A DNA stretch of 61,372 bases, the filler included, from Sphacelaria rigidula (taxonomy: Eukaryota), in assembly GCA_964200075.2 (NCBI GenBank). It is 8 parts of 8 records of this genome, joined end to end, with 100 filler letters (N's around TTAATTAATTAA, not from the genome) between each part and the next. Parts side by side here need not be neighbours in the genome. Positions count along the whole stretch, not along the records: positions 15,371 to 22,954 come from CAXNAA020014217.1; 7 more parts are not named here. One strand, given 5' to 3'. The notes beneath the pieces are model-generated. The model searched no databases and was not told where the DNA came from. It saw nothing but the letters and a program-made list of their open reading frames with translations. Of this stretch, positions 2,345 to 58,733 are shown in pieces (the stretch's first letter is position 1; each line of letters opens with the position of its first letter). The position numbers and the translations under genes are program-made.

Positions 2345-3407
2345 CAGGGATAGATAAATTACGGAGCGGCAGACGCCGTACTTTAGGGCGGATGCTTCCT
2401 ACAATATTTTTTTGTCGTGCACATAGAATGTACGGACTAGGGTATTAGCTTTTTTTTATTTTTTCAATATTGTTTCGTTGGACACCACCCCGTTCCCCCG
2501 CCAAACCTTGCTATAACTTGTTTTACCATAGCTTCCGGAGACCTAGTATTCCCTCTTCATCACATTCCATAGATTACTCAATATCACGACATCAGAGCGA
2601 GCGGATAAACCTTTTGAACCTTCAAAACCTTGGGTAGCCAAGGTATAATCAAGGTATAATGGTTGGGAATTCCGCACATGCTCGGCTCTTTGGCTTCCAT
2701 TGCTTTTTCTTCGATGTTTCTTTATGTGCGTCCCGGGCTAAATCCTGATACGATCGGAGTATTTCTACCCAACATCAGCGAACACCAATGTGGGACGCGC
2801 TGACTGAACTTCTCCTCTCCTTATCCACCATATGCAGTGCTTGTGCAGACGTAAACCTGGACATACAGCAAGTACCGTAAAGTATATCAAACAGTGTGTG
2901 AGCGTGCGCAGTAGATGGTTTCGCGTTAGTCTAGGTAGAGCATGGGTGCATGTCATCGGCTTCTCAGGATCTCAGCTCTCGTATCGTTTCAAGAAGGGTA
3001 TGGCACGTGAAACCACGGAAACGAACGTGGATCCTTCTTTGGCGGCTTCCTGTACCGGAAGAGCACCGCTGCATAAACATCAAGATACACGTCCAAAACA
3101 TCACACACTATCTGTACATTCCGGCTGACCGCACGCCATGAAACACGCCATGTGGAACACTGCCTACCCCACGCAAAGGTACAATTGATACTGTACAACA
3201 AACAGAGGTCATCGAGACGCCTGAAGATTTGAATTATTAATGTCCTCGAAACGATGATATTAGGCAATTCGGCACGAACGAGAAAATGTCCTGATTTAGG
3301 TACGAACAGGTGATATTTCCCGTCTGTGGCATCCAAAAATACGTGCGCGCTGAGAGTGCGCGGCGAGAGTCGAACATAAAAAGCTCAAGCATCTTATCTG
3401 TAGTTAA

Positions 3408-3506
3408 CCCTTAGACCGCGAGGCTAGTCTTCTGTCGAATCGGCATCAATTTCAAGTGAAAAGAAAGTATGCATGATCAAGAAAGACTAATCTCGCGTTC
3501 TAAGGG
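3408..3506. mobile_element. piggyBac-like MITE (99 bp)
   Basis: TTAA at 3404-3407 and 3507-3510. TIRs CCCTTAGACCGCGAG..TAGTCTT / AAGACTAATCTCGCGTTCTAAGGG. Internal AATCGGCATCA motif. Confidence 0.8.
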
Positions 3507-3752
3507 TTAAGAGACAGACTAGAATCGAGGCCTACCGACGAGTACGAGTATCACGAATGAAAAAATGGTACCCAGGAAGATACCTGTGAATGGCGGGATG
3601 TCCAAGTACTGCCTGTTTGTATCGTCTCTGCTAGTTTATGTATCAGTTCCTGTAGTTTAGCCCCACATGATGACAGGATTGAATTATCGGATTCGACAAG
3701 GATCCCTTGTATTGTGAAAACCCCAACCCTGCCAATTGATGGCAGTACACTA

Positions 3753-4101
3753 CGCTCCGGTGGCTTTTGGTAGCCTCGAAACGTTCTGACGGTTGGGTCG
3801 TGTGTTCAATTCTCGGAGCGATCTGAGATTTTCTCTCACACCATGCCCAACAGTGGAGAGCGACTATATCGTGGGTACATAAAATTCGACTTGACGGTCG
3901 ATGAGGGAAAGGGGTAGCTGAATCCCTCTCGCGATAAAAAATAAAGGCAGCACCGCAGAAGGAACGTGGGGTACTAAAACACATAAAAAAGAAAGAGCTC
4001 CTGTGTTGAACTTCCTCCTGTGTGACCCCGGCTGATACGCCCGCACATATACCGAAAGGTGTAGACCAGGCGTCCAGAATAGATGGGACGACAACATACA
4101 C
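3753..4101 (+). mobile_element. tRNA-derived SINE (family A), full length
   Basis: Degenerate A-box and B-box head, ~350-bp body and GATGGGACGACAACA(CA)n tail shared with six other copies in the window. Confidence 0.75.
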
Positions 4102-5093
4102 TCATCGATCTATTGCAGCATCTCCAATACACACAGTCAGTAGAATTGACGAACCACGTGACAGACCTTTGAGGCGGCGCTGCGGTTTCGCTCGCGCTTA
4201 TCGCAGGGCTACCAATACATTGTTGCATCATGTTCACGTCTCGCTATACAAAAACGGCGTTAGCTTGGCGTTGATGTTAGATGCGTTTTTCATGGGGGGC
4301 AACGATGTGTGCACGGTAAGTACGGAAACACACTTGGTTGAAAGTTGGCATGTGTATGTAACACAGTACAGTAGCCTAGACTGACTCATTGTGCACAGGG
4401 GTCATCCGTGCAATCGGCATCAATTTCACTTGAAAATTATTGTTTGGCCTGGTTTGGCCCAGATGACCTACCAATGCGGCCGTGGGGTTGACCCTTTGAC
4501 CGCCAGGGTGTGGGTCTTGTGGTGAATCGGCATCATTTCCACTGGAGATGACTTCCAAGACCCGCATCACCTACCCTGGCGGCCCGGGGGTCTTGCCCCG
4601 TTGATTCGCAGAGTGGGTCATATGTTGAATCGGCATAATTTTCACGTGAACAGTGAACACCAGTCGCAGACGACCCACGAGTACTTGCTTTCTTCAGCGA
4701 ACAAGGAAGACCAGTACTATACCAAAGTGCATGGGCACATTCATGCATGTGTCTGGAATGTCAGAAGAGAGAAGGTCACAAGAGAACACAGTGGAAAGTA
4801 GGGCGAAGATCTGCAATACTGATAGTCGGCATCTGTCAACTTGTGTGCTCCTTGCGTCTCTTTGAACAACCAGATGAAGCGTACACTCTGCTTCAATTAG
4901 CTGCGTGCAAGCCGGCTGCCCTGCCGGGTGGTAGTGTGATAACACTGCTGTTGTGGTGGGTGGACCATATCGTGTGAAGTGGACAAGGATACGGGCTCAT
5001 ACCTCAAAATTTCAAGAAACTGCTCAAACCTCTGAGTGGTTCATGGTAATCTGTGAGTGTAGGATGAAACGATACTACGCGCTAGTAAAGTGC

Positions 5094-5903
5094 CGGTCGC
5101 CTCGGTGGCTCAGTTGGTGAGCTCGAAACCTTCTTCCGGCGGTACTTTTTCTGACGGTTGGGACGGGGGGCGGTTCGAATCTCGGTAGGTTACATGATCT
5201 GGATTTCTTTCTCGCGTCATGCCCAACAGTAACGGAGAGCGACTCTGTCACGGGTAGACGCAATTCAACTACGACGATAGAGAGAGACCGCTGAGCCTCT
5301 CTCTCTCAACGTAAAGAAAGGTATGCACCGCAGAAGAAGGGAGGGGGCTGCTATAATGTCATGGATCGACCCGGTCCCAAGACAGCATGGGGTCTTCCTC
5401 AAACTTCTAGGATTAGTCTAGAGATGTGTCGTGTGAACGTTTCGAGCACCAGAGGCCGCCAAGCCCATGGCATCACCTTCTCTTTAGACCTCACTTACGA
5501 TCTCGACATTAGGCACTAGGGCCAGCCATCAATACAAGACACAACGACTGCACTCCTGATATTTTTCATCCTGCCACTGCTGCCTCATCATCATTCATCA
5601 TCACTGAGCACCAGGTCAAGGATCTGCCCGCAAGCGGGAGAACACACATATACAGGTAACTCTCGATAGTCTGGGGTCCACGAGCAAGGCATTTGGAGGC
5701 AGTCATCTGTGCATCCAGCCAGCTGCTCCCACATAGCCTTGCTAGTACTCAACGCACGCAGCATATCTCGTCAAGACCCGTTGCCCTAAAACAAAGTAAA
5801 ATTTCCTGGGTTGATCTTCCTGTGTGACCCCGCCTAATGCGACCACATATATCGGAAGGTGTAGACTGGCGTCCAGAGTAGATGGGACGACAGCAACACA
5901 CAC
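5094..5903 (+). mobile_element. SINE family A copy interrupted by a ~430-bp insertion (~5357-5790)
   Basis: A-box TGGCTCAGTTGG and B-box GGTTCGAATC in the head. Similarity to 3753-4101 stops near 5355 and resumes near 5786. Confidence 0.7.
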
Positions 5904-7585: not shown

Positions 7586-7685
7586 NNNNNNNNNNNNNNN
7601 NNNNNNNNNNNNNNNNNNNNNNNNNNNNNTTAATTAATTAANNNNNNNNNNNNNNNNNNNNNNNNNNNNNNNNNNNNNNNNNNNN
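7586..7685. other. Artificial scaffold linker N44-TTAATTAATTAA-N44
   Basis: Six-frame stop linker inside an N run, identical at seven positions. Confidence 0.97.
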
Positions 7686-7869
7686 GGGGGAGGGGGGAGG
7701 AGAGGGGAAAAGCAAGGGGGTGGGTGTGGGGGTGGGGGGGGGGAGGGGGCGGGGGGGGGGGGGGGGGGGGGGGTTGTATTCATGACCATGCGATCACGAT
7801 AAAGGGTACATGCGAAGGACGCTATCGCCAGACGTCCGTTCATAAGAAAACACTCGCTCGGGGAAAAAG

Positions 7870-8246: not shown

Positions 8247-8783
8247 CTGTTGGACAAAAAACAAAAGCGAATAAAAGAGTGAGCATGCCATGTCGTGGTG
8301 AGCAGCTCGGGAGGCATATCTAGAACAGTACAGTGTGGCGATACACCGGGACGTGAGAGCGGCGATCGCTTGATATTGAACGTCAGCAACTATACCGGAT
8401 GTTGACCACACACTCACTCGAGAGAGTATCCATCGAGCGGAGATATGGTGCTCCGTCTCGCTCGCCAGGGAGGAGTGGTCGATGGAAATAGTACAAGTAA
8501 GGCGAGCAACAAATGACTCCCCCCCATCACTCACGAGACATGATATGCCAAATCGATGATGTAGCGACTTTGAAGACCCGACACTGATAATTTGATACAT
8601 CGATCGATCTGGTGTCGTACTTCGACTGCATCCGTCAATAATACAGCCACGGTCACAAGAAATGTCAACAGCAGGTGGGTCATGCTACGATAGGGGGGGG
8701 GGGGGGGGGGGGTGGGGGGGTTTTTTTTCCGCGAAATTCTGCTGCTTTTGCCTTTAAAATCAACAAAGGTTTTTNNGGAGCAA

Positions 8784-8852
<69 letters not shown>

Positions 8853-10004
8853 CTGGGGCCGTTTTTATTCCGCGAAATTCTGCTGCATTTGCCGTTGAAA
8901 TCAACAACGGTTGTTCGAACGTGCTAGTTCCCGATGAATAACGCTCATTCATACTGCTCGACACCGCTTTTTCCCGAATAGAAGCGCACCGGGAATGTTT
9001 GCGGTCGTATGACGCATTTTTGACACCATTTTTTCGTGGGATCTCCCCCATCACAAAATACGTCCTTCTTGTGGATAAGGACCGTGACTTGGGTCTCTCG
9101 GAAAGCAGTTTACCCTTTCGGAACCATCGAGGGAAAGATGATGATTTTCAATTGGCGTTTTCTTGAGCAAATATGGCTGTTTCCCTGCAAGTGCTGATGA
9201 TGTCGCCCACCCAAACGGTGCTCTGCTCCAAGTTCAAGTATTATACTAATGCGACGGATTCTTCCCGGTGACGGGTGCACTGTTTTTCGCGAGTTCCAAA
9301 GGAATGATTGATTTTCAATCATCAACCAAACAATCGCTGAGGGAAAACTAGATTGATCCGCACCAAGAGGCTCGTCGCGGGGAAGTCGAGGCGTTAAGGA
9401 TACGACGGTGGGTGGCGACAACAAAAAAAAGCGCGAGATATAGATATATCGCTGTATGTTCGCTCTGACTGTCATGTATCCCACGCTCTGCACGACAGCT
9501 CATCTTGTCCAAAAGTGTACTGCGTACAGTGTCGACTATTGCGTCCTTTACTCCATCATTTTCACCATTATTTCATTTGTCGCACGTTGGACCCCTCACT
9601 TTCCACGGGACGAGTCCGTGGTCCCAAGGCATCAATAAACCCATCCCTCCCCGGTACACGCCTTGCATTTTGGTCGCGCGGGGTGGGTCAGCACTCCCCC
9701 ACCGCCTTAACTCGTCAGACAAATTCAGTCGATTACCGGACTTTATTTTCTCACGTTCTCACGCTTTCCACAATGGAAACCAGATTTTACCGAGAAAAAG
9801 TCCAACGCATCGGTAATCGAACCTTCGTTCTCTCCACCCCAATGACGACAGTCCGACAATTACACCACCGAGGCACGCATTGCAATGGACAATAGTCTTT
9901 ATACTGTACGCAGGACACTACTCGGCAAAATGATATCTCATTGTCCAGAGTGAAAGGTATCCATCCGCGGTAGATAACCTCAAAAAAGGAACCTTCTCAG
10001 TATA

Positions 10005-10754: not shown

Positions 10755-11448
10755 CTGACCATCAGTATCACGTGATGCACAACGAATCAGCCATGAGAGA
10801 AGGGGACGGGTGGAATATTCATGATACTGCATTGCATGCCGTAGCATACGATCATTCACCTCGGGGTTAGGGGGGGGGGGGGGGGGGGTGGGGGGGGGGA
10901 GGGCGGCAGAAAAAAGGAGAGGGAGTAGGCAAGCAGTGGGGGGGGGGNNNNNNNNNNTTCTTTTATCTGTTTGGCTTGCGTGCACATTTGTTCTTTCACG
11001 TGGGGGGGGGGGGGGGGGGGGGTTGTGGGATCAAGGTGGGACGCATAACAAAAGATATGGATTTGAAACGCCATGAGCGACGGGGCAGATCATCCGCATC
11101 ATCTTCAACAAACTGGTATTGATTGTTTGATTGAATGCCGGTTGATTGTGGTATGTCAACTGACCCCCCAGGGGTCCAGCCGTGGTCTCGTGATAAACGT
11201 ACCCAAGATGAACAAAACTGAAACACTCGCAAGAAAAAAAAGGAAAAGAAAAAAAAAAAGGTCAAAAACGACACAAGAGGCCAAGACATGACGAACAAAA
11301 TTAATGAATCAAAATAATAAATGAACAAAAGTGAAGCACAGAAAGAAATGGCCGGGCTTCAACCAAAAATATATACATATATTTAAACTTTTATAGATAC
11401 ATGACGAGTCGGGTCGTTCCAAATGGTGCCGGATCGGCTCAGTCGCAC

Positions 11449-15270: not shown

Positions 15271-15370
15271 NNNNNNNNNNNNNNNNNNNNNNNNNNNNNN
15301 NNNNNNNNNNNNNNTTAATTAATTAANNNNNNNNNNNNNNNNNNNNNNNNNNNNNNNNNNNNNNNNNNNN
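15271..15370. other. Artificial scaffold linker
   Basis: N44-TTAATTAATTAA-N44. Confidence 0.97.
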
Positions 15371-15684
15371 ATCGAAATAGTGCGATATTTCCCCGTCTAA
15401 CATCATGGCACTTTTGGCACATTCTGTCATCTTCTTCACCATATCGGGGAGGGGGGGGGGCGTACTCATTTCGGGGAGGGGGGGCGGGGATTTCGTCAAC
15501 ATTCGCCTATCAATGCGCTGGTAGTCTAGCCAACGCTACATACCTTGGTTCACCTTCAGAGGAGTTCTATGCTGTCTCTGAGGCTCATATATATACACAC
15601 ATGTTTCACGCAACGAAGTACGAAATATTTCAAGCCACGGATGAAAAAATCCGAGACAAAATATTGGTGACGAACTATGCACGC

Positions 15685-16193
15685 TGTGACGGTTTCAGAG
15701 ATATCCAACTAGACTACTGACCAGTCAGGGCTGACTGGTCAGTGGTCTAGTTAGTTGTCTCTTAAACCGTCACAAAAGTGACTCGTGGGGGTCCAATCCC
15801 CGTCGCTTTCAATACGAGCGCGACTCCCCCCACCAGCGCCCTATCGACTGCTATCAGGACCTCTAGTGTTGTCGCTTTGACCGTATCCTACAGTTACTCC
15901 TCTCCCCCACTCATTCCAAGAGTGTGTGCACTGGGGACCTTAGCAGTCAACTCCAAACATACTTCCTGTGCTGCAGCAGCTGTACGCACCAGGCTTTACC
16001 CCACCCTTTTCTCTTTGGGCCAATTTTTTACAGAGGTCTTCTCTCCTCTTTTCTTTCTTTAAAGAAAGTGCGTTCGACGGGAATCGAACCAGCGACTAAC
16101 TTTTGTGACGGTTTAGGAGACAACCAACTAGACTACTGACCAGTCAGCGCTGACTGGTCAGTAATCTAGTTGGTTGTCTCCTAAACCGCCACA
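15685..16193 (-). mobile_element. Non-coding 509-bp element with two 90-bp palindromic TG...CA terminal repeats and a tRNA-like Pol III promoter (TRIM/SINE hybrid-like)
   Basis: Palindromes at 15685-15774 and 16104-16193, which are also direct repeats of each other. Minus-strand A-box 16135-16124 and perfect B-box GGTTCGATTCC 16090-16080. Mirrored degenerate pair on the plus strand. Confidence 0.75.
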
Positions 16194-16848
16194 ACGTCTA
16201 TGTTCAAGGACATATGGATCATTGTCAGTCATGTCAACATCGTAAAACATCACGCCGCACACCACAAGTACCACCCACTGGGCATATGGTCCAGTTTCTC
16301 GCATTTTTCGATGTGTAGCGGTGGACTTAGTCGAATATTAAATCCTTCGCGAGATGTAACCGGTACATTTTGTCTCGCATTGACGCACACATTTCTATAA
16401 ATACATTTTTTATTTCTACTGCGATTTACGTTTGTCCGATCGTTACTGATCACCCTGGATGATGACCAAACCAAACACGGTTTTCCTCTAGGCGTTCCGG
16501 TGCAGCAATAGGATTGTTATGGCAGGGCGGGGCGATTTTCATCCGCTTTCCTCGATCGTCGCACTTGACCCTCAAAGCGCGATGCGGGTAGTCCATCTGG
16601 ATCACGCACATTTTTTTCAAGCGGAATTGATGCCGGTTCAGGAGGTAACCTACCCTCGCGGTCAAAGATTTCAAAGGAAACACCCCTTTCCCAGGACGAA
16701 TTCGTAGTTCCGAGCGGGGTCAACCAAGCCATCTCTCTCTTCCATCTCTACTTGCCTCATACTTGCTCTGTGCCGCAAGTATCATATTTAACGTTTACAC
16801 GGGTCCTTGACCGTGTCCAATGCCTTTGGCGATGCTTTTATTGGAATC

Positions 16849-17100
16849 TGTGACGAAAATACGCCGTCACGTTGAGTGAAGAGTGATGATATGGATGATT
16901 ACCCTTGGTAGTGATGATCTGGATAATGACCGGGGGCACTAGGTTGATACTCTGGCGTGTCTAGGTGGGTGCCCTGGTAGATTACTCCAGGACAAAAAAA
17001 GGTGTTGTGAAGGCTAACAACTGAAACCTGAGGCCGGTGGAACTGGGGAGTCCCTCAACAGTATTAGACGCCGCAGTACTAGCAACCCGCTGGCGTTACA
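16849..17100 (+). mobile_element. 5' LTR of a Ty3/Gypsy element
   Basis: Termini TGTGACG...CGTTACA, homologous to the LTR at 57647-57848, followed by gag. Confidence 0.8.
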
Positions 17101-17398
17101 ATATCGATATTAGTGATAGTCGTGCTAGTAGTGCTATCGTTAGTGACTGCTGGAAATGTTTCAGTAGAGAGGAGTCTGGACAGCTTCGGACATATGGCTT
17201 CACGGACGCGTGAGGAGGGTTCAAGCTGAGGTAGCTGCGAAGGCGGCTGGCCCGTGATTGATCCAGACTGGAGACTTGGTGGAGCTGCGTGCAGCGGGAG
17301 TTTATAGGACCCCACGGCTGTGTGGTGCGGCGACGAAGGCAGGCGTGAACTGTTGAGTTCGAGAAGGTTCAGAAGCCTTCGATAAGGTTCGCTCGGAA

Positions 17399-18330
17399 AT
17401 GTCGACTACAGAGGTACCGACCGAAGAGCCAGCGGAGACGACCGTAACCCCAGTTGTTCTGAGAGAAGAGTTGCGGCCTCCCAGTTACGGGAATTTGCAT
17501 TCTGAGTGTGCTTCTCGTTCGTTTTATACGAAATATGTGGAATACAAGAAGCGGGCGGAACATGCGAATGGGGGGGGGGGGGTGCGGTAAGGCATCAGTT
17601 GGTACCCATGGCGCAACTCGTGCCCACTCCCCTTCAACGCGTTTTTGCGAGAAGATCCCTCGAGAACACCGTAACGCCGCTGCAATCGGCTGTAGCGATC
17701 AAGAAGCATGCAGGGCATGCGGCGGGCGCTGACGTAGAGCTAACCCAGGCGTCCGCGGCCGTGGCGATGGCTGTCGCCATGAACCACAAGGGGAAGACCA
17801 CGCGTGAGAGGGTGGAGCCAATCATGGGAAAGTTGGAGACATATTTTTCGGAAAATCCCAACATCGAGATGGTTTATCGTTTCTCCGATGGGAACTTCCG
17901 TCCAGGGCCGGCTGCGGTGATCACGAAAGTGATGGTGGAGGGTCCGGCACCGGCGGAATTCAAACAGGCCGTGCTTGTGAAATTACAGCACGAAACCAGT
18001 TGGAAGTCAGACCCGTACTTACCTATGGATACCGTGGTGACTGACGCTCAAGCATGGCGGAAGATTGAAGCATTCGGGAAATCATCCACTTCGTCGTCGC
18101 AGTCTTCGAGCTCGCGTAACCGCGGATCAAAACCCGCAGGCAGTGCCGCCGCCAACATGACTTGCTTTCAGTGTGGCCACGTAGGCCACTACGCACGCAA
18201 GTGCCCAACGCCTTCCGAGGGGAAGTCTGGGCAGACGAGTGCCGCGCGCCATCGCAATCACGAGAAAGGAAAAGGTAATCGGGGTGGTGGCGGAGGCGGA
18301 TCCTCCAGCGGTGGAAGTGTGCAGTCGAGC
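17399..18330 (+). pseudogene. gag: Gypsy gag with CCHC zinc knuckle, frameshifted and 3'-truncated
   Basis: ORF 17399-17590 changes frame at a G-run into ORF 17506-18399. Knuckle CFQCGHVGHYARKC. Unrelated A-rich sequence follows after ~18330. Confidence 0.75.
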
Positions 18331-18964
18331 TGCTGCTTGAGGAAAAAAAAAGGGGGAGGGAAAGAAAAGATAGACGTACCCCAAATGAAAGCAACCTGAA
18401 ACACTCGCGAAATGAAAACTCGAAAAACGCAAAAATATATATTTTTTTTAAATGAAACCGTGGGACAAGACGATCTGAGAGTAACCTCAACAAAAACGAT
18501 AGACAATACAGGACAGATTGGCCCGTGTCCAGGGCGCTTCCAATTTCAATTTATTGCGGCGTTTGTGACGTTGCCGTCTCGAATTTCGGCGGTTAAACCG
18601 GAGTGGTCTCGGCTGGGCCCTTCTACTCAAAAATGAAGGTCTGCCCGTAACTTATTTTATATTTACACGTGGTATCCATCTCCTTACGGTGGGTAGTTGA
18701 GGGACTGGTGAACTTGGTTCAGTACCAAAATGCCCAGGTATTATAATGTTAATGCTTTATCTTGTCTCGTTCGAATCACGTGTTCCATGCTAATAATAAA
18801 AACTGCCTGTACTGCAGCATGGTTGTGTCCTTGTAATCCTCAACAAAAACTACGCTCCCCGCGCCTCTGCACAGTTCATGTCATTCCTTGACAAAAACTA
18901 ATAACAACAACTACACAGTTCATGATATCTAGAGCATGTCGGTGGCATTTGTATCACGTGTTTT

Positions 18965-19335
18965 GTGTTGTGTGTTGTCGTCCCATCTATTCTGGGCGCG
19001 GGGCCCAGTCTACACCTTCCGGTATATGTGGGCGTAGCAGCCCGGGTCACACAGGAGGAAGGTCAACAAAGGAGCTTACTCGTTTTTTTCTTCTTCCTTT
19101 GTTTTTCGTACCCCACCTTCCTTCTGCGGTGCTTGCATTTTGTTTTTATGGCGAGAGAGGTTCAGCAGTCCCTTTCCCTCGTCGACCGTTAGGTCGAATT
19201 TTGTGTACCCACGACATAATCGCTCTCCACTGTTGTGCATGGTGTGAGATAAAGTCCTAGACCGCTCCGAGAATTGAACCGACGACCCAACCGTCAGAAG
19301 GTTTCGAGATTACCAACTGAGCCACCGGGGCGACC
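18965..19335 (-). mobile_element. SINE family A, full length
   Basis: Minus-strand head GCCCCGGTGGCTCAGTTGG...GGTTCAATTC, colinear with 3753-4101. Confidence 0.8.
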
Positions 19336-20066
19336 CGCTATCATGCAAATCCGTTTTTGGATTGGTACGGTATACTATTTGGTACAGCACTAGATCGAAA
19401 AAACCGGTTCACCACACCTCCAAGTGCAACAACGATGGACTCGCTGGCATCTCTTCTGCGTGTTTCCGAATAAAGCGTGATGAAACATCAGGAGCAATAT
19501 CGTGACGGTCTGCCACAGGGGAGTACAACGCTGTAGTGCACAAGCGCGTTGGCACGATGTCGGCAACACGGAAAATCGCGCACGCGCTAGCGTGCGTGCT
19601 GCTCGAAAATAACGCGCTCCGCCCGTGTAATTTGATTCAGTGCATTTATTTAATTCAATGCAGAGGTTACCCTATGGGCCTGGAGGCGATACTGCGCACC
19701 AACCGCAGCGTGACGCCCGCGGCGGTACTACCTGCTCACTGCACAGCGGCAAGGTGCAGGGTGACAAAGCATACCGCAGGACGTGACATCCTTAGCCTAT
19801 CCCTGTCCCGCATTGATTTTGTGTTGTCCTGTACAGTTCGCCACATCTTGAATGCAGCCGCTTGCATGGCGGCCAACGTGTACGCAGGATATCACCCCTC
19901 GCTACGCGCTACAGTATATCGCTAGGTCACATTTTGCAAAGCTGTCCGTGTTGCAGCTACACCGTGCGTTTGCCCCAGGTGGCGTACGCAGGAGTGAAAG
20001 GCCGCCAGCGCCCGCTGTAATGGCAGCCTGTATCTCGGGCAAAGCTGTACGGTAACACAGCCGCGG

Positions 20067-20137
20067 CTGGTGCGCCCACATATACCGAAAGGTGGAGACC
20101 GGCGTCCAGAATAGATGGGACGACAAGACACAACACA
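20067..20137 (+). mobile_element. SINE family A 3' fragment
   Basis: CCCACATATACCGAAAGGT...GATGGGACGACAA tail. Confidence 0.6.
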
Positions 20138-20754
20138 CTGACTTTGCGCAGTACACTTTCAACATCGTGTTTGCATCGACTGTAGAAATCTTTGTGCACG
20201 GTTGGGTGCATTTCCATATATAATGCAGGGTCTGATACAGCTTCGCTCATAATGTACTAGGAGGGTCTGGTACACATTTCTACATGTAAACGTATGTAAT
20301 GTTACTCAGTGATATCGTGAAAAAACTCCGCAACATCTGGGCGAACTGCACGTGAGGCAATCGCCGGAATATTCACCTGCGAACTCTGCTCCAGTGCACT
20401 GTGAGGTGATATCGCTATAAGGACACTACCATAACCACCTTGCCGGCTGCTAGACTGTCAGGACGTAGGATCCGCTAGCATTGCTACTCTCTGTACGGGG
20501 ATGTTACCCCTTGTCGGGAACGTTTTGGAGCATGATATTAGACGTAAATCATCGTTACTTGTACATGGGCGCCAAACGCTGGGGGTTCTAACTCAAGACT
20601 TCGATGTGGAAAACAATACTAGGTAGGCAGCAGCAACGGCTGTGTGTCCAGGTGCCCCTTGGAGCAAGATGCGTTTGGTTTCTGTTTGACGAAATTATCC
20701 CCAAAAAAACGAAATCGGTAGGGGTTTTAGAGTGTAAAAATCTAGCAAAACAAA

Positions 20755-20910
20755 TGTCACAAGAATCGGGTCGCAGAAATCAGGTCGCAGAAATCAGGTC
20801 GCAGAAATCATTTCGCAGAAATCAAGTCGCAAAAATCATAGCGCAGAGATCAAAATCGCAGAAATCAAGTCGCAAAAATCCTGTCGCAAAAACGGAGTCG
20901 CAAAAATCCA
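20755..20910. repeat. Minisatellite, ~14-bp unit TCGCAGAAATCAGG, ~10 degenerate copies
   Basis: Visible tandem periodicity. Confidence 0.8.
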
Positions 20911-22233
20911 GGGAGTCGAATTTTCACCCGCAGCAGGAACCAAATACACTTTGTGAAGTTGGAACAGGACGCAACAGAACAAAAAACGAAACATGTCACG
21001 CATGTATGTACTATGGACCCGCGTATAGATAGATTGACCTCTTGATACTCAAGACCCGCCCAGAGGCAGGAGCGAGAGGATAAGAAAAAGGATGAGGGGC
21101 GACAAAAAAAAGGGAGGCTAGGTTCCAGATGTGTTTCTCTCATGTCATACTCGTAACCCCTTCCCCTTGCCTTCCTCGCGACGAGTCCATAGTCTCATAA
21201 GAATCAAGCCATCTCCCCCCCCCCCCGATACATCCCTCCCTCAGATTGTATTCTCAAGGATTGTTGGATCATGACCGCTCTCCTGCACCGCACCCCGTCG
21301 ACTTTGCATCTCGTCGAAAATTGTGTATAGCAACTCACGTACGTCCCCACCCTTTTCAATGAAAAGATAAACGTTGAAAGGTGGTGATATTATCCGCAAG
21401 CTACCACACTTACCGGATGGTGTAGTACGACAACATCGCCTTCGTACAAGCAGTCGGACTTGTACGACTCCAGCGAGCCGCCAACTTTCACGACCTTTTC
21501 GGATTGGTGAAGGGACAGCGTTTGATAGGATGGGCACGGTCGGGCAACGGGGGCGCAGCGAGCGTTACCTGACTGTTCCATTCGTCTCTTTCGTTTTGTT
21601 GTTTGTTTGCCAGTGAAGCGACTCAATATTTCCCTTTTTTTCGTAATATTATCTTCCGTTTTTTATTAATGCTATTAAAATTATCATTATTTCTGTCATG
21701 ATTTATATATTGATAATTAATACCTCTGTGTTCTCATCATCATTGGTACTATTTTAATCATAATAACTACGATCAAAATAGGGGTAGGGGTCCCGGTCAT
21801 TCGTTGTCGTGTGTTGTTCAGTACTTTCGCTCCTTTTTTTATTTTCCGCTTTTTATTCCTTGTTACTTTCTTACCGCTGTCCTTCACCACCTACGGATGA
21901 GACTGAAGAGCGTTCTTCGTCAAAGACAAGCCGATCGACACAAATCGAAGGAGGAGGGGGGGGAGAGGTACAGCGAAGATTCTTTTCTCTCGTCTATCCG
22001 CCCGTCCGTTCGTCCGTCCGTTGGTTCGCTTGATTGCGTCTCCTCTTCATACTTCCTTGTTTTCGTGTCTCTTTATGTGTTGTCTCATTTCCCCTTGTTA
22101 CCTCGCATGTCCCCCCCTTTCCCCTTCCCATTCCTCTCTCACATCTTCATTCAACAGCGTACACCCCCCCTCCCGAGTCAGTATTTAATATATTGCACAC
22201 AGGCGCCACTATCTGTCTGCAAAAATGTGTTAC

Positions 22234-22422
22234 CTGCACACCAGACGGCATACCGTTACCGCTTCGCATGACAGCGCTGCCCCCGTAGCCTTCGGTCAAG
22301 TACACCACGCTGCCGCCCTGGCACGTTCCAAGGACGTTAACACCATTAGCAGTCGCAGCAGCAGCAGCAGCAACAACACTGATGTGAGCAACCGGCTTGA
22401 GCAAGTCCACGCGCAAATCCAT
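22234..22422 (-). CDS. Possible isolated exon (MDLRVDLLKPVAHISV...GTCQGGSVVYLTEG...), product unknown
   Basis: Coding-like composition and donor CAG|GTAACA at 22234. No convincing acceptor or partner exon. Confidence 0.25.
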
Positions 22423-22954
22423 GCAAAGAGCTCAACACCTTGACCCTTTTAGCACTGGCGATGGGAAAGTGTGGACTTCCAGGTGCTGCTTTTTTAAACG
22501 GCGTACGGTTGAATTTTCACAGCTTTCACGCAAAACGATTAGCCCGAGCCTTGTTTTTCAGACCCGTTTAAAAATGTGCCCAAGTGCAGCACGGGACTCA
22601 GTATATAGAAAATAGACAGGTGGTGTCGATTTTTGTTTGTATAAAAGGTCAGGCACGCAAGTACTAATTTTGGCTGTGCGCACAGGTCGAACATGACCCG
22701 TTGCGTCTCCTCAGTGGACAAAACCAATCCGACCGCACCGGGGTGACATTTTTGGTGCGCGCATGACGTATGCTGCTGGATTGTTTTGTGGCCTTCCGCC
22801 CTGAAAATGGTTGCCGTGGGTCATTCATGTTCCCATATTTTCTTCTTTGCCAGGTCTTGAAATAATTAGGCATCTGACCCGGGCACGGAAGAGTGTACTC
22901 ATGATGATGCATGCCATAGTCATAAGACCGTTGACCTCGCATCCCTACAATGCC

Positions 22955-23054
22955 NNNNNNNNNNNNNNNNNNNNNNNNNNNNNNNNNNNNNNNNNNNNTT
23001 AATTAATTAANNNNNNNNNNNNNNNNNNNNNNNNNNNNNNNNNNNNNNNNNNNN
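22955..23054. other. Artificial scaffold linker
   Basis: N44-TTAATTAATTAA-N44. Confidence 0.97.
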
Positions 23055-26196: not shown

Positions 26197-26405
26197 CCCG
26201 TAGACCGCGAGGTTAGTCTTCCGGAAACAGAGTTGAATCGGCATCAATTTCGAGTGAAAAAAAGTATGCATGATTCAGAAAGACTAATCTCGCAGTCCAA
26301 GGGTTAACCCCTAGACCGCGAGGTTAGTCTTCTGTTGAATCGGCACCAATTTCAAGTGAAAAAAAGTATGCATGATCCAGAAAGACTAATCTCGCGGTCG
26401 AAGGG
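26197..26405. mobile_element. Two tandem piggyBac-like MITEs (26197-26303, 26308-26405)
   Basis: Same family as 3408-3506. They share the TTAA at 26304-26307; outer flanks are TTGA and TTAA. Confidence 0.8.
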
Positions 26406-27404
26406 TTAACACTCATTTGTCGGCCTGATGAATTAGTATCGACATTTTATTCTTTGATCACCCCCTCCTGTAGAAACTTCTCAAAGAAAAAGAAGATGTT
26501 CAGGGTTGAGTGTGCGGCGGCTTGGACGACGGGCCTGCCAGTCCAGAAACAATGTGAGCTTTGTCATGAGCGTTTGCGACCACGTCATGACATAAGCGAC
26601 CACAACCGCCGCGCCGCCAATGCGCGGAAGAGCAGTCTATGCCGGCAGATATCGGCGTGTTGTTGGATGCTGCGGTATTTCCAGCACAGCAAGCATACAT
26701 ACCATATACATTCCTGACTCAGTTTTGTTTTTCTTGGATACGTTCACCATGTGACCACAGCTAGACCTCTGGGGGATCAGTTGAAGTGCAACAATCAATC
26801 AACCATCAATCGATTAGAATGACTGTCTGTGTTGTAACTGACCGGGGAGGGGGTGAAACTACTGACTTTACTGTTGTAACATATCTTGAAAAATTGTTGT
26901 GTACACCACGATACATACTCGTGGATCTGTCCACCTCAAGCATAATATCTGCTACATTCAACATGTGTTATAAGTGCACTGTTGATGGGGTTTCACATGT
27001 ACCTCCCCCCTCCCCCCCGGTCAGCTCCTCCCGCGTTTGTACAATGCTTCTCGTGCTCTCTACAGTCGGTATGTAGTACAGTACAGGAACACTACTACTG
27101 CGTCTGGATAGCCTGTGTATTGTACCAAGGTTGAAAAGTCGTGTGGTGCGCATCTGCGCCCACACATACCGACTTTTTGGAGGGGCTAGGGCTCCAGTAT
27201 TATTACTTGTTCCTTTCGACGTCTGTGCCACACATCTTCTGTCGGAGGCAGGAATATATGTTGTGTTTTCGCCGGCAGGCGACAAAAAGGTCGGAGAGGG
27301 TCGTTTTTTCGCGGAAGGAGGGGATGACCCAAAAAAGAACTCCTGAAGCACACTCCCCCTTCTTTTCGGCCCTCCATGATGATCTAACCTTAGGGGATGC
27401 AACT

Positions 27405-29828: not shown

Positions 29829-29934
29829 TATTTGTTTTTCAACTTTGTCGCAAGAAATTGATTAGTTCTAAGGAACAATGGCAAAAACAGGAAAGTTTGG
29901 TGGGCTTTGCGCGGTCCGTATACCTGCTTCCACT

Positions 29935-30066
29935 TTGTGTACCCACCACATAGTCGCTCTCCACTGTTGGGCATGGTGGGATAAAAAATCTCAGATCACT
30001 CCGAGATTTGAACCCACAACCCAACCAACAGAAGGTTTCGAGGTTACCCACTGAGCCACCCGGGCG
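29935..30066 (-). mobile_element. SINE family A 5' fragment (tRNA-like head)
   Basis: Minus strand GCCCGGGTGGCTCAGTGGG...GGTTCAAATC. Confidence 0.65.
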
Positions 30067-30175
30067 AAAACGTAAGCTAGGGTCAACATCTCTCATAGTA
30101 TTTTCGTAGCGGTATTTTTCCCTCATAACTTGTTGCAAAAAACGAGGGAGAAAAACGAACCGGAAGAGACGGCCA

Positions 30176-30638: not shown

Positions 30639-30738
30639 NNNNNNNNNNNNNNNNNNNNNNNNNNNNNNNNNNNNNNNNNNNNTTAATTAATTAANNNNNN
30701 NNNNNNNNNNNNNNNNNNNNNNNNNNNNNNNNNNNNNN
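30639..30738. other. Artificial scaffold linker
   Basis: N44-TTAATTAATTAA-N44. Confidence 0.97.
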
Positions 30739-35631: not shown

Positions 35632-37157
35632 TTAAAACACCACCACCCAACCACACGCGCACGAGATGCATCTGCAGCACCCCCCCCCCCCCCCCCCCGA
35701 ACCCCCAGCGAATAACTACGTCATGGCATTGAGCTGTTGAGCAAAAAATAGTGGTTTGTGTTGACCACATACATGTGCTACTCGTATTGGCGCGATGATT
35801 TTTCTCTTGTCCTCTATACGGCAAAGTGCCGCCGGTTTTCCACAGATACCTAGTCTCACGCGCGGTATGTATATCTACATATGTGTGTGTGGCAACGGCC
35901 TTCTTTATACAGGCGTTGTGCATCCACCAGACCAACTACTACGTGGTAGTCCATCCCCCGCTTCCCCCCTCAGCGTACTGAATAGCCGCTGGGGCACGGC
36001 GGTTGCGGTACGAATCGTGGGACATATCGTGCGTTTTTTTTTGTAGACGAAGTATCTGATGTACGCCTTTTGAAAACGCGGGGACATACGTGACTAGCGA
36101 AATATGTATGTAAAAGTATGGGGAGACCCGACGCGGCGTGGGACTGCTGATCCAATCGGCGATAACAGAATATGTGAGGCAAGCACGGTGGGAAAATATA
36201 GATGGGCTGGCTCCTGGAGACCACGGACTAGTCCCGACGGAGAGAGGAGGTAGGGGTTAGAAGTGCGGCGATAAAAAATGAGAATGATGAATGATGCATC
36301 TGAAAAAGTGATGTGAGTCCTCGACATGCGTGCATTTGTGGTGATGTATGTGTACGGTTCCCGTTTGTCAGAGGGTCAGCTATAATAGTGTCCGCGTTGA
36401 CATGTGTATGTTTAGAGCATGTATTCAAGATATATCTTCTCACGTTGATTGGTCGATCGATTGTCGCACGTTCACGAAGATTCTGAAGAGACTCAGTCGT
36501 AAGGCGCAAGCTAGGCGCAACCAACCAAGGCGAATAAAACGGAATTACTCGTCGAAGAGAACTTGAGAATGTGTCGAAGAAAACGAAGGATAAGGTACAT
36601 GGGAAACTGAACAGAAACGAGAGGCGATTTCAGAACAGAAGTAACGAGGATATATGTCATCTTCACGTATTCATGGATGTTGGAATAAGCATCAACCGTT
36701 CCCATCCCGTTGTACTGCGTGTGCAGGGTATGTGCAATATAGGAAAGTGATATTCACTATGAACCCGAAAATGAAGAAATACAACGAACAAAATATATGA
36801 CTGGTGCTCCGTTCGGTTGGTTCTTGAAGAGTTATGTGTTTTATTTTGTTCTACGAGTGTACCATTTTGTCAAGGGCCGATCGGAGAGGGTATAGCCAGT
36901 ATTGTTGTGTTTTGAGAAGTGGGGATCCGACCCATGCCCGCATCAGCAGCCAGCCCAGTGCTGTTGCTTCCCTCTCACAAGCCCGTACAACTCGTTGTGA
37001 CTGACTTAAGCAGGTGATGTGCGACGTTTTGAAATACCAACAATATCGGGTATACCCCTACCCGACCTGCCGTTGCATTTTTTATTTTTCACAACAAAAC
37101 GGGAAAAAAAATACCATCGACTGTCCAAGCCAACTAACAAAGAAACAAGAATCGAAG

Positions 37158-37158
37158 C

Positions 37159-37197
<39 letters not shown>

Positions 37198-37320
37198 GAT
37201 CATGACAACAATGGATCATGACAACAATGGATCATGACAACAATGGATCATGACAACGACGGATCATGACAACGACGGATCACGACAACAATGGATCATG
37301 ACAACGACGGATCACGACAA
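37158..37320. repeat. (CAA)n followed by a 16-bp minisatellite ATGGATCATGACAACA x ~8
   Basis: Direct observation. Confidence 0.9.
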
Positions 37321-37484
37321 AAACAAATACAAGCGTGGGAAAGTCAGTACGAAATAAGAAAAATAAGGAAAAAGACGGTTGGATTGGAACACAAAGATCA
37401 AGAAAAGAGGAAGAAAACATGTTTCGTGTATGACCCACTACAAACGGTACATACCGTATATCTACCGAATTGACCTAATCTCAG

Positions 37485-38322: not shown

Positions 38323-38422
38323 NNNNNNNNNNNNNNNNNNNNNNNNNNNNNNNNNNNNNNNNNNNNTTAATTAATTAANNNNNNNNNNNNNNNNNNNNNN
38401 NNNNNNNNNNNNNNNNNNNNNN
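38323..38422. other. Artificial scaffold linker
   Basis: N44-TTAATTAATTAA-N44. Confidence 0.97.
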
Positions 38423-41207
38423 TGGGGGGGGAGGGGGGGGGGCAAGGAGGGGAAGGGGGGGGAGGGGAGGGGAGGGGAGGGGAGGGAAGGGCTGGAAGAG
38501 GGGACAAATAGCAAAGAGTGTGGGGCGAACAGGGAGTGGTGACGAATGCGGTCGATCGTACAACGTGTGGTGTTCGGTGGTTAAGTGCGGAAGGTATGTA
38601 GCTAGTACGGTTTCCCTGCGTTGGAAAGCAAGAGCTTGTTTTTAGTGGCGGCTGTCATTCTCTCGATCTCAAATATCTGTCTGTGTGCTTGCAGAGACGT
38701 ACACGCAGGAGCTCGCGTTTTCCTAGAAGCGTCGAAGGATGCCACGCGCGTCGGTTGGACCCTGGCTGTGCTGTGGTGCTGCGTACAACTATACACTGTA
38801 GGGTGGTAATCCGCAACAATCAAGACTTACTGGAATATGACAACCCCGAACGGCTACACGCAAGCTTGCAATCCAGCGGCACGAACCACCATCATCCCGC
38901 AGTATGTCCAGCAAGTGTCTAGCCGCCGCAGGCTGCTCATGTGTTCATGTGTTCGATGAGGATCACCAACACAAGTGCCCCCTGCAAGTCCAGACTACTG
39001 TACTTCCTTTGTTGAGCTATTCAGACGAGAGGAGGAAGTAGGAGACCCGTTGAACTGATGAGTAGCACGTGGCGGGGATAATCCAACCGATCAACAGCAG
39101 AGAGAGTACCGTAACCGCGTTTCCGAAACACATGAGACACGCATCGTCGAAGCTGGGTCAAGAAGTTGCTCATCGACCCACACGGTTTTTCGCTTCCGGC
39201 GAAGCGCGTTCCAGTAAATTGATCACACGCACCCGCATGCACTGTGAGGGCTCGTGTTACGTACAGAATGCCGGGCCCACTGTATTTTTGTTGGAGATCC
39301 CGTAGCGGTTGTGTTCGATGCCGCCGTTCCGTAACAAGTCACCAGGCGCGGCTAATTCAAAACGATATCCGATATGCCCCGGGCATGTGTTTGATCCGTT
39401 GACCGCCACGGTAGGTCATCTGTTGAATCGGCATCACTTTCAATTCAAAAGTTATTGCGTAACCCAGATCACCGATTCAAGTTCCGCGCCCCGTAAAATC
39501 TTGAGGGTCCCTCCACATCGATCCATGTGGCCTACTACGCCTGCTACGCCACGCGCATCCTACCTTCCTTGTGGCTGGAAGCCGCGACGCTTGCTCAGCT
39601 TGGTCCATATGCTGTTTTGTTGTTCCAAAAAGAGACTTCAGGCCCCGTCTTAGGGTTAACTTTCTTCACTTTTTCCGGAAAAAGAAGAAGACCCCGACTT
39701 CTCCCAAAAATAATTTGATGGGAAAATATCCTACGCTAGATTCTCGGAGAACCTGTAGTCAGTGTTGAATTCATCTATATTGCTCCATCCGCTCGAGATT
39801 TCTGTACATTTTCCGGAGTAGGAGTTCTGTATTCCGAAAAAAGAGGAGATTTCGGGGGAGAAGTAAATCCGTTGAAATATTACCCCTTTTCAAGACATTT
39901 TTTTTTCATCATCCTACTGGTTGGTTGAGGGCTGATGGGCTGGTGCTCCATTTCCACGCCCTCGAGATCGTTGTTATGAGAATGAATATTTTTTTTACTA
40001 TTTTCTTATGAGAACGGAGAAACATTCCGATGGGGGTGCGAAAGGGAGTTGACGATGGTTTGCCGCGGTGGGCTGTTCGGCTCATGATGATTCATAGGAC
40101 ACAGGACCACACACCCGGGGTGCACAGGAGAAGAGAGAAGTGACTACAGCTGAATCTTCCAGCACTTCGCCGATTCACAGAACACCGCCGATTTAGCAAG
40201 CTTGGACCCATCGGCGGGTAGTACGATCAAGGCTTCTCAGCATTGGGGCGATCACGCGCAAGGTGTATCGGTATTGTCGCAGGGTCGAGACGCGGACCGT
40301 TTCTCGCATGAGGAAATGAAGTATCCGCAGCAGCAGCAGCGGCGGCAGCAATATCGGCAACAGCTGATTTAGCCCCACCCCTGGCCGTACACAAACTGTT
40401 GCTGTTTCTCTTCCTTGAACAAGAAACGGTCCGCGCTTCGACCATGCGTAATGCTGATACACCTCGCGCCTAATCGCCGCCCTGCTGGGAATCTCTGGTT
40501 TGCATGTTACCACGTCATCATGGCGCTTTCATCGTGTTTTTCTTTTTTTAATAGAAAGTCGGTCGATTTCTCGTGATTGGGATACTATGAGTGGTCACAA
40601 TCGTCATCATTGTCACAATCTCATCCTCATTTTTTTCTCCATGAGACGGGGCCTCGGGGCTTACCAGCACGCAAATTTCGATAGCACGATGTCCAGATAC
40701 GTGCGCGTCAGGAGCACATGGGTGCGTGTATTTTGTGGAGTATTACGTGAATATCTCGAAGGTGCTCATCCTCGTAACTTTAATCCTTTAACCACGAGGA
40801 TGACTCATCTGGGTCGCGCACAATCATTGTTCAGGTGAACATGATGCTGATTCGACAGATAACCCACCTTGGTGGTCAAAGGGTGAAATCACACGATACC
40901 AACGCCTGCTCTTAGCGCTGAGTACAACACCCTTCCTGTCATGAAAAGCGTCACGTTCAGCTTGGTTCAGCGAGTGATGCCGCGAAAACCCCCTCCAAGA
41001 AAAGTGGTTGGGGTGAGGAGGCGAAATCTACATGCAAATCAAAATAATAGCAAGAAGAGCTGACTGAGCACACGAAGCAGCCGGGAACTCGCACGCTTGA
41101 GATATTTGTCACCAATTTCGCCCATACGAGGGGCTTCATGCAGTCTGAAACCAGCTATCATGCCCTGTATGGCCATTTTTTCGTGACAGTCTTGGGACTG
41201 GTTTGGG

Positions 41208-46006: not shown

Positions 46007-46106
46007 NNNNNNNNNNNNNNNNNNNNNNNNNNNNNNNNNNNNNNNNNNNNTTAATTAATTAANNNNNNNNNNNNNNNNNNNNNNNNNNNNNNNNNNNNNN
46101 NNNNNN
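46007..46106. other. Artificial scaffold linker
   Basis: N44-TTAATTAATTAA-N44. Confidence 0.97.
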
Positions 46107-53689: not shown

Positions 53690-53789
53690 NNNNNNNNNNN
53701 NNNNNNNNNNNNNNNNNNNNNNNNNNNNNNNNNTTAATTAATTAANNNNNNNNNNNNNNNNNNNNNNNNNNNNNNNNNNNNNNNNNNNN
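53690..53789. other. Artificial scaffold linker
   Basis: N44-TTAATTAATTAA-N44. Confidence 0.97.
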
Positions 53790-56900: not shown

Positions 56901-57567
56901 CTTTCTCGGTGTTGGCGTCCTCATCGGTGGGGGATTGGAAGTGTGATGTCCTAGAAGATGCGCAATTAAAGCGTGCGTTGCAAGGAGTTTTGGAGTTGCA
57001 GGAAAGTTTCCACGTTCAAGTGCAGGAGCGTGTTGCCGCTGAACGTGCGCGTAGACGTGAGGGGTCTTTGTCGGGGCTGAAATTGCCGAATTGCGAGGTA
57101 GGCGATTAGGTTTTGTATGCACGCGTGCGTCGCCCGGGAGTTACGCCTAAATTGATGGCGACGTGGACTGGTCCGTGGNNNNNNNNNNGGTTGGTGCTCA
57201 TCACCCGCATGTGTTTGAAATCCAAAACATTGTTTCGGGTCGTGTTCAGACCGCCCATGTAGCTCGTCTGCGTTTCTATGCAGACTCACAGCTTCATGTT
57301 ACGGCAGATGTGAAGGATATGTTTCAGCACGCTTCCATCCAGGGGCAATTTGAAATGGCTGGGATTGTTCGCGTGGTAGAGGCAGAGAACCGTTCGTTGA
57401 TCGTATCGGTCGACTGGGTAGGTTTTGAAGTCGAGGAGCGTACGTGGGGGCCTTTTGAAAATGTTTTTGAGGCCTCTCCGGAATTTCTCAAGAAAAAGTT
57501 GCGTAAGGTGCGAGTGACTCGTGCCATTGCTGCTCGAATCACGCGTGAGTTTGGGATTCAGTTGTGA
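53941..57567 (+). pseudogene. pol: Ty3/Gypsy (chromovirus-type) pol: protease-RT-RNase H-integrase-chromodomain, with stops and frameshifts
   Basis: Protease LDSA. RT GYWQ..L, PQG..NA, WVDD. RNase H FPDAS. Integrase H..GH..C..C and D,D,E (HFDF, SDTATHF, NGTCERM). Chromodomain V.W.GF...E.TW. Stops at 55023, 56144 and 57107; frameshifts near 54825 and 55575. Confidence 0.93.
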
Positions 57568-58534: not shown

Positions 58535-58733
58535 CAATGGTCGACAAGGGAAAGGGACCGCTGGACCCCTCTCGCGATGAAAAACAAAGGCAAGCACCGC
58601 AGAAGGAAGGTGGAGAACTGAACAAATAAAAAAAATCTTGTGTTGGCCTCCCTCCTGTGTAACCCGGGCTGGTGCGCCCACATATACCGAAAGGTGTATA
58701 CCGGCGTCGAGAATAGATGGGACGACAACACAC
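58535..58733 (+). mobile_element. SINE family A, 5'-truncated, intronic
   Basis: Colinear with the 3' part of 3753-4101. Confidence 0.7.

Follow-up and report, generated by a model that had tools for sequence, protein, structure and literature searches.

A highly abundant, non-coding inverted-repeat element with tRNA-like hairpin termini in the genome of the alga Sphacelaria rigidula

The stretch of Sphacelaria rigidula DNA analysed here (61,372 nt from the assembly GCA_964200075.2; referred to as the window) contains, at positions 15685-16193, an element of 509 bp, which is a member of a very abundant, non-coding mobile family with thousands of copies in the nuclear genome of this alga. It is an inverted-repeat element with tRNA-like hairpin termini: each end is a 90-bp palindrome, one half of which continues inward into a tRNA-like unit. 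The original prediction, made from the sequence alone, had described a non-autonomous retroelement whose long terminal repeats (LTRs) are palindromes built from tRNA halves. The observation on which it rested is confirmed, and its family is both real and abundant; support was obtained for the tRNA-promoter component, but not for the LTR interpretation. The 61-kb window is composed of eight pieces of about 7.58 kb each, separated by linkers of the form N44-TTAATTAATTAA-N44 (7586-7685, 15271-15370, 22955-23054, 30639-30738, 38323-38422, 46007-46106, and 53690-53789). As these pieces were joined artificially, features located on different pieces are not genomic neighbours. The element lies within the piece at 15371-22954 (CAXNAA020014217.1).

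Comparison of each 90-bp repeat with its own reverse complement revealed mismatches in 6 of 45 pairs in the left repeat (15685-15774) and in 2 of 45 pairs in the right one (16104-16193). The same counts had been made by eye in the original prediction, and the repeats themselves, their starts, ends and centres, and the flanks ACGC and ACGT were all present as it had described them. Both repeats start with TGTGACG; they end with CGTCACA and CGCCACA and are centred on GTCAGGGCTGAC and GTCAGCGCTGAC, respectively. They share 80 of 90 positions in direct orientation and equally 80 of 90 as reverse complements. A 24-mer taken from the arm occurs four times in the window at up to three mismatches, with no occurrences expected. 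The termini of the whole element are TGTGA...CCACA. In place of CCACA, the other three arms carry TCACA; read as reverse complement, the right outer end is TGTGG, while TGTGA is found in the remaining three arms.

Folding of the two repeats as single-stranded DNA yielded plain hairpins of -35.2 kcal/mol (15685-15774) and -44.8 kcal/mol (16104-16193), with z values of -12.0 and -15.1; these were equalled by none of 200 shuffled sequences. A T-shaped hairpin such as that of adeno-associated virus was ruled out by the same folds. The palindromes also draw matches to plant microRNA (miRNA) precursors in Rfam with E-values down to 1e-7 (16103-16193 and 15684-15777). All of these are below threshold (MIR4208, 51.8 bits versus a gathering score of 140; MIR774, 45.2 bits versus 80) and show only that the palindromes are long hairpins.

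When both ends of an element carry a palindrome, the pair can be taken for a direct repeat and equally for an inverted one. Palindromes by themselves are thus unable to separate LTRs from terminal inverted repeats (TIRs), and it is the adjoining sequence that decides. Beyond the palindromes, the similarity runs inward in inverted orientation only: the segment 15685-15805 and the reverse complement of 16075-16193 match along 121 nt (84%). The ends of the element are thus TIRs. Each of them is about 121-128 bp long and consists of the 90-bp palindrome and about 35 bp of inward sequence; taken together, they make up 48% of the element. The whole element, treated as single-stranded DNA, folds end against end (-129 kcal/mol, z = -13.7).

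The resulting layout is (arm' arm X) - core - (X' arm' arm), where arm plus X forms, on each side, a tRNA-like unit reading inward (Table 1). The first 45 nt of this unit are mirrored outward, and this mirroring makes the palindrome. Since the symmetry beyond the palindrome is inverted, the B boxes fall outside the direct repeat, at a distance of 16-17 nt in the left unit and 14 nt in the right unit. The core had been taken as non-coding, in agreement with a Pfam search of three open reading frames (ORFs), which gave no match at E ≤ 0.01. Runs of T occur on the plus strand at 16007-16010, 16024-16029, 16049-16052, and 16101-16104; the minus strand has a single such run, at 15777-15774.

Table 1. 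Features of the element and related sequences in the window
Feature	Position	Strand	Remarks
Left flank	15681-15684	.	ACGC; possible 4-bp target-site duplication, 3/4 identical to right flank; one site
Left outer arm	15685-15729	-	Reverse complement of tRNA-like 5' part; outer terminus 5'-TGTGACGG
Left inner arm	15730-15774	+	tRNA-like 5' part; A-box variant TGGTCTAGTTAG; reads inward
Left tRNA-like 3' part	15775-15812	+	Degenerate B box GGTCCAATCCC (15790-15800); inner part of left TIR
Core	15813-16065	.	Non-coding; pyrimidine-rich on plus strand (161/253 C+T)
Right tRNA-like 3' part	16066-16103	-	Perfect B box GGTTCGATTCC (16080-16090); inner part of right TIR
Right inner arm	16104-16148	-	tRNA-like 5' part; A box TAGTCTAGTTGG (16124-16135); reads inward
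Right outer arm	16149-16193	+	Outer terminus ...CCGCCACA-3'
Right flank	16194-16197	.	ACGT; possible 4-bp target-site duplication
tRNA-derived SINE family	3750-3960	+	
tRNA-derived SINE family	5090-5250	+	
tRNA-derived SINE family	19120-19340	-	
tRNA-derived SINE family	29920-30080	-	
Probable 3' part of tRNA-derived SINE	~58535-58600		

The abundance of the family was assessed using contigs from four public sequencing runs, which were placed on positions 15371-16900 at a likeness of at least 80%. Three runs (X1, X2, and X3), originating from two studies, are of DNA type. One public run containing the stretch bears the label 'algae metagenome'. The fourth (X6), only guessed to be RNA, gave low depth on the element and no cover of the flanks, and says nothing on expression. 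The depth values are sums across contigs, not copy numbers. In bins spanning 15677-16186, the summed depth was 1.3x10^4 to 2.2x10^6 (X1-X3), and the core was as highly repeated as the ends. The corresponding values were 32-43 for the left flank at 15524-15676 (X1 and X2; X3 was without cover here, from which nothing is drawn) and 22-127 for the right flank at 16289-16543 (X1-X3). The rise and the fall of depth coincide with the ends of the element, and the ratio of core to flank depth is a few thousand, to be read as an order of magnitude only. Single positions were covered by up to 118-126 distinct contigs (counted to 128). A single-copy sequence, the outcome named in the original prediction as speaking against it, is at odds with this contig depth, which instead shows a high-copy family. 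The four palindromic arms share words that pile onto the best-fitting arm, so that differences in depth between the arms are meaningless.

Several contigs of 750-800 nt derived from other loci provided evidence on the boundary of the repeated unit. The match to the element ends exactly at 16193 in three of these contigs and at 16194 in one, which indicates that the outer end ...CACA / TGTG... is common to other copies. These breaks concern the right end; for the left end, it is the step in depth that provides the evidence. Each of three runs also contained one contig that connects the arm end (16104) with a copy of another repeat, unrelated to the element. It is highly improbable that the element is not a transposon but a dispersed duplicated segment or a satellite-like unit spread by recombination, with the palindromes as a by-product: it is located between flanks of unique depth, and other loci share its right end exactly before passing into unrelated sequence. 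The first ~100 bp of the right flank (16187-16288) showed a depth of 500-2,250 in the DNA runs, which is far in excess of unique depth but much lower than that of the element. In this segment, which may be a low-copy repeat or part of a longer subfamily of the element, A>T at 16231 is seen in about three contigs.

The majority sequence of the contigs differs from the copy examined here at several positions. In three of the arms, the changes are 15729 G>C, 16116 G>A, and 16164 A>G, as well as 15744 G>A, which is clear in X2 and X3 and accounts for about half of the depth in X1. Each of these changes makes the arm agree with the other arms at that position. In the left X part, the majority moves toward the right X at 15780 (G>T), at 15782 (C>G), and also at 15793, where C>T results in GGTTCAATCCC.

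A sensitive blastn search of the element against the window revealed no second copy. Two exact patterns searched against viral, metagenome, and prokaryote contig collections gave two matches, both of which were chance 20-21-mers without extension. The full-text literature search, which did not extend to Repbase and Dfam, retrieved neither an element with palindromic termini made of tRNA halves nor an account of this family. Given its abundance, the family probably figures in the repeat library of its genome as an unclassified entry.

The relationship of the terminal units to tRNA was examined at the level of promoter boxes and of folding. The A box TAGTCTAGTTGG, attributed in the original prediction to each arm, is matched exactly by two arms, both on the minus strand (15705-15716 and 16124-16135); the remaining two carry variants differing by one or two bases. 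Both B boxes were found where they had been placed, namely GGTTCGATTCC on the minus strand and GGTCCAATCCC on the plus strand. The pattern of an A box TRGYNNAGTNGG followed after 28-40 nt by a B box GGTTCRANYCC has one match in the 61-kb window, and this match is the right unit. No such pair at tRNA spacing occurred in 200 mononucleotide shuffles.

This pair of boxes speaks for the proposed tRNA promoter; no tRNA is called at normal thresholds. With default settings, ARAGORN reported no tRNAs, and the best match in Rfam was tRNA-Sec with 16.6 bits versus a gathering score of 47 (E = 1.7-9.6). At a threshold of 80%, ARAGORN proposed cloverleaves at 15728-15810 (Lys-CTT) and, on the minus strand, at 16068-16150 (Arg-CCT). 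At this setting, the background is 0.36 per 700 nt in shuffled sequences, and 34 were called in the window; the relaxed cloverleaves therefore carry little weight.

The window also harbours a family of tRNA-derived short interspersed elements (SINEs) with four copies. Their head contains the A box TGGCTCAGTTGG, the B box GGTTCAATTCTC, and an anticodon-like loop TTCTGAC, followed by a body common to the copies. The head is co-linear with the terminal unit of the element in three places, namely the A box, CTC..AAACC, and the T arm. The SINE loop TTCTGAC aligns opposite GTCACAA, which represents the last bases of the arm, and canonical A-box numbering likewise puts the loop at GTCACAA. In the register given by the arm end, the anticodon stem pairs at 2 of 5 positions. 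The relaxed ARAGORN cloverleaf places the loop (CTT/CCT) 8 nt upstream of this register. It is thus plausible that, as suggested earlier, each arm represents the 5' half of a tRNA and terminates in the anticodon loop; the A-box numbering and the SINE alignment favour this, and the relaxed ARAGORN loop opposes it. In our view, the unit is a tRNA or SINE head that has degenerated.

The element resembles tRNA-derived SINEs (SINE2) in having A and B boxes at tRNA spacing and a head that aligns co-linearly. It differs from them in that it has no SINE tail, contains two convergent heads with mirrored 5' parts, and ends outside the RNA polymerase III (Pol III) unit. The element could have originated as an inverted tRNA-derived SINE dimer, with two convergent tRNA-like heads whose 5' ends were duplicated by foldback. 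A single rearrangement would have created it, and the machinery of long interspersed elements or recombination would have spread it. The tRNA-like units with A and B boxes, co-linear with a SINE head present four times in the window, are in line with such a dimer. So is the position of the only minus-strand run of at least four T, 376 nt downstream of the right unit, which would give a Pol III transcript of SINE size. A transcript starting at the tRNA-like 5' end, however, would miss the outer arm and the far palindrome, whereas the limits of the family coincide with the palindromes' outer ends. Moreover, neither an A-rich or simple-repeat tail nor a long target-site duplication of variable length is seen at this site. 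An inverted SINE dimer is, accordingly, quite unlikely.

A further comparison is possible with the TRIMp3 group among the miniature terminal-repeat retrotransposons (TRIMs). This group comprises Cassandra (5S), Helenus (tRNA), and Ajax (5S), all of which carry a small-RNA promoter in their LTRs (Kojima 2024, PMC10886601). The original prediction could not place the combination of a tRNA promoter and palindromic LTRs in a class familiar to it; this is out of date in so far as Helenus, as described in that paper, unites a tRNA promoter with LTRs. The direct LTR of Helenus encloses the entire tRNA-like sequence, a primer-binding site and a polypurine tract are located between the LTRs, and the target-site duplications are 4-5 bp long (PMC10886601). 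The element from S. rigidula is similar to TRIMp3 members as characterized there in being miniature, in carrying a Pol III promoter motif in its terminal repeats, and in having TG...CA ends (PMC10886601). It differs from Helenus in its palindromic repeats, its inverted symmetry, the location of the B box outside the direct repeat, and the lack of a polypurine tract.

According to an interpretation of this kind, the palindromes would act as LTRs of a TRIM-like retroelement, Pol III would produce the template RNA, and the integrase of an LTR retrotransposon would insert the complementary DNA. The 90-bp repeats are formally direct (80/90), begin with TG, and end with CA. The length of 509 bp is within the range of 311-1263 bp given for Helenus, and the 4-bp flanks fit the 4-bp duplications of animal Helenus (both PMC10886601). 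Pol genes of the Gypsy type are present in the same window. Against this, the inward continuation of the repeats is inverted, not direct, so that the B box lies outside the would-be LTR. No polypurine tract was found, the 15 nt preceding the 3' repeat being CCAGCGACTAACTTT in the plus reading and CCCACGAGTCACTTT in the minus reading. There is also no primer-binding site of the TGG type within 10 nt of either repeat; the first TGG occurs 11-13 nt after the 5' repeat and is part of the sense T-arm-like sequence. On either strand, the far palindrome has a run of T at its inner edge (16101-16104 and 15777-15774). Transcription by Pol III would consequently stop short of the 3' repeat, so that LTRs could not be regenerated from the transcript. 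A TRIM-like retroelement is therefore unlikely, and we conclude that the element is not a member of TRIMp3, though the Pol III-type motif in its terminal repeats is similar.

These features also bear on the original prediction as a whole. The inverted symmetry over 121 nt, the B box outside the direct repeat, and the missing polypurine tract speak against an LTR or retroelement nature. Its view of a non-autonomous element agrees with the multi-copy and non-coding character, the palindromic TG...CA termini, the A/B-box pair, and the shared outer ends, non-autonomy being presumed.

We consider the chances about even that the element is a miniature transposable element with inverted repeats (MITE) or a foldback-type non-autonomous DNA transposon, with a tRNA-SINE-like head taken into its inverted repeats. 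Typical of such transposons are its short length (509 bp), the lack of coding capacity, the high copy number, the long TIRs (~121 bp), and the unique flanks. Distinct from them is that the outer 90 bp of the TIR form a complete palindrome with an A box, with the B box located just inside. In this scenario, the inverted repeats would have taken up the head of a tRNA-derived SINE or of a tRNA pseudogene, and a DDE transposase acting in trans would move the element as DNA. That a non-autonomous DNA transposon can contain a SINE module has a precedent in MER6, a mariner-type MITE with a SINE V-domain (PMC6887750). By the description given there, this module does not appear to be a promoter-bearing tRNA head within inverted repeats, and the description does not include palindromic ends (PMC6887750).

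The termini TGTGA...CCACA and the flanks ACGC/ACGT may be left by an enzyme of the retroviral-integrase type, of which Ginger1 is a candidate model, although we hold this part of the MITE or foldback interpretation as rather doubtful. Ginger1 elements were described as having TIRs of 40-270 bp, TGTNR termini, and 4-bp target-site duplications, CCGG or CCGT/ACGG (Bao, Kapitonov & Jurka 2010, PMC2836005). The termini TGTGA and TGTGG fit TGTNR, and a TIR of ~121 bp is inside the above size range (PMC2836005). The flanks ACGC and ACGT, known from one site and identical at three of four positions, share the central CG, and ACGT would be the remaining combination of Ginger1 half-sites.

Several points weigh against a MITE or foldback transposon moved in this way. 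The paper on Ginger1 reports it from animals only (PMC2836005). The evidence on the insertion site comes from one copy, in which the flanks match at three of four positions, and a match of this quality has a chance expectation of ~5%. A rival 5-bp direct repeat, CTATG, is located 5 and 4 nt outside the palindromes, and the target site can also be read as TATG (5 nt on each side) or as ACG (3 bp, with a 1-nt shift). The loss of similarity at 16193/16194 in contigs of at least two other loci weighs against outer readings such as CTATG. No transposase with matching ends was found in the 61-kb window. The sole rve ORF of the window (56147-57109) has an ORF for RNase H as its neighbour, and this integrase therefore belongs to a Gypsy-type retrotransposon. 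Finally, a perfect 90-bp terminal palindrome is, to our knowledge, unusual for MITEs, and none of the transposases known to us requires such a structure.

The palindromic termini may also be viewed in terms of replication. The terminal repeats of adeno-associated virus and other parvoviruses consist of a terminal palindrome and an inner non-palindromic part. The palindrome of the element with its ~35 bp of further inverted repeat recalls this layout, by analogy only. The palindromes could then serve as replication origins or be resolved hairpin ends, or they could be regenerated by fold-back priming. The majority centre CAGCGCTG, which has no spacer, is what closed-hairpin replication would give. 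No Rep/HUH or resolvase gene was, however, linked to the element in the window. The fold of a hypothetical Pol III transcript from 16150 to 15775 is unexceptional (z = -2.4, 3 of 100 shuffles being as good). The transcript would thus lend no support to self-priming, and it forms no end-to-end pairing of the kind needed for it. A hairpin-ended replicating or self-priming element is, therefore, very unlikely.

Other repeats and genes were recorded in the window. A second, unrelated short repeat of high copy number is present at 16544-16696 and also at 3403-3511, 4593-4655, 26232-26410, and 39391-39453. Its ends are GTTAACCCTTAGACCGCGAGG, and its depth in the runs is 10^4-10^5. The succession of TTAA and CCCTTAG in these ends presumably resembles piggyBac-type termini. 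A Gypsy-type LTR retrotransposon is represented at 55571-57109 (plus strand) by an RNase H ORF (RT_RNaseH) and an integrase ORF (Integrase_H2C2, rve); a protein-atlas search yielded integrase clusters from eukaryotes only. At 17506-18399 (plus strand), 1.3 kb downstream of the element, an open frame of 297 amino acids contains a CCHC zinc knuckle and may be what is left of a gag gene. Long G or C homopolymers and G-rich runs of tens of bases occur at 33-114, 7709-7799, 8693-8876, 10863-11061, 38416-38523, and elsewhere. Two minisatellites were detected, with a 16-bp unit at 37157-37348 and a 14-bp unit at 20743-20922.

The most far-reaching interpretation, which we also judge unlikely, is that of an inverted-repeat counterpart of TRIMp3. 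Each hairpin TIR would then contain a working tRNA-type Pol III promoter, insertion would be of the retroviral-integrase type into a 4-bp MCGK-like target, and the termini would be cut exactly in the tRNA-like anticodon loop, possibly with replication or regeneration from hairpin ends or with a Pol III hairpin RNA. If true, such elements, present in thousands of copies, would make up a major unrecognised part of the algal genome and would connect SINEs, MITEs, and integrase-type transposons with one another.

If the MITE or foldback interpretation is true, a family of several thousand copies shapes the genome of this alga. A single element would then unite characters that otherwise belong to different classes: a SINE-type Pol III promoter, MITE-type TIRs, integrase-type TG...CA ends, and perfect 90-bp terminal hairpins. 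It would carry Kojima's observation of small-RNA promoters within non-autonomous terminal repeats over from LTR to inverted-repeat elements (PMC10886601). Elements of this kind would be miscalled by programs designed to find tRNAs, miRNA hairpins, or LTRs, and they could give rise to Pol III sites, small RNAs from hairpins, and sites prone to cruciform formation throughout the genome.

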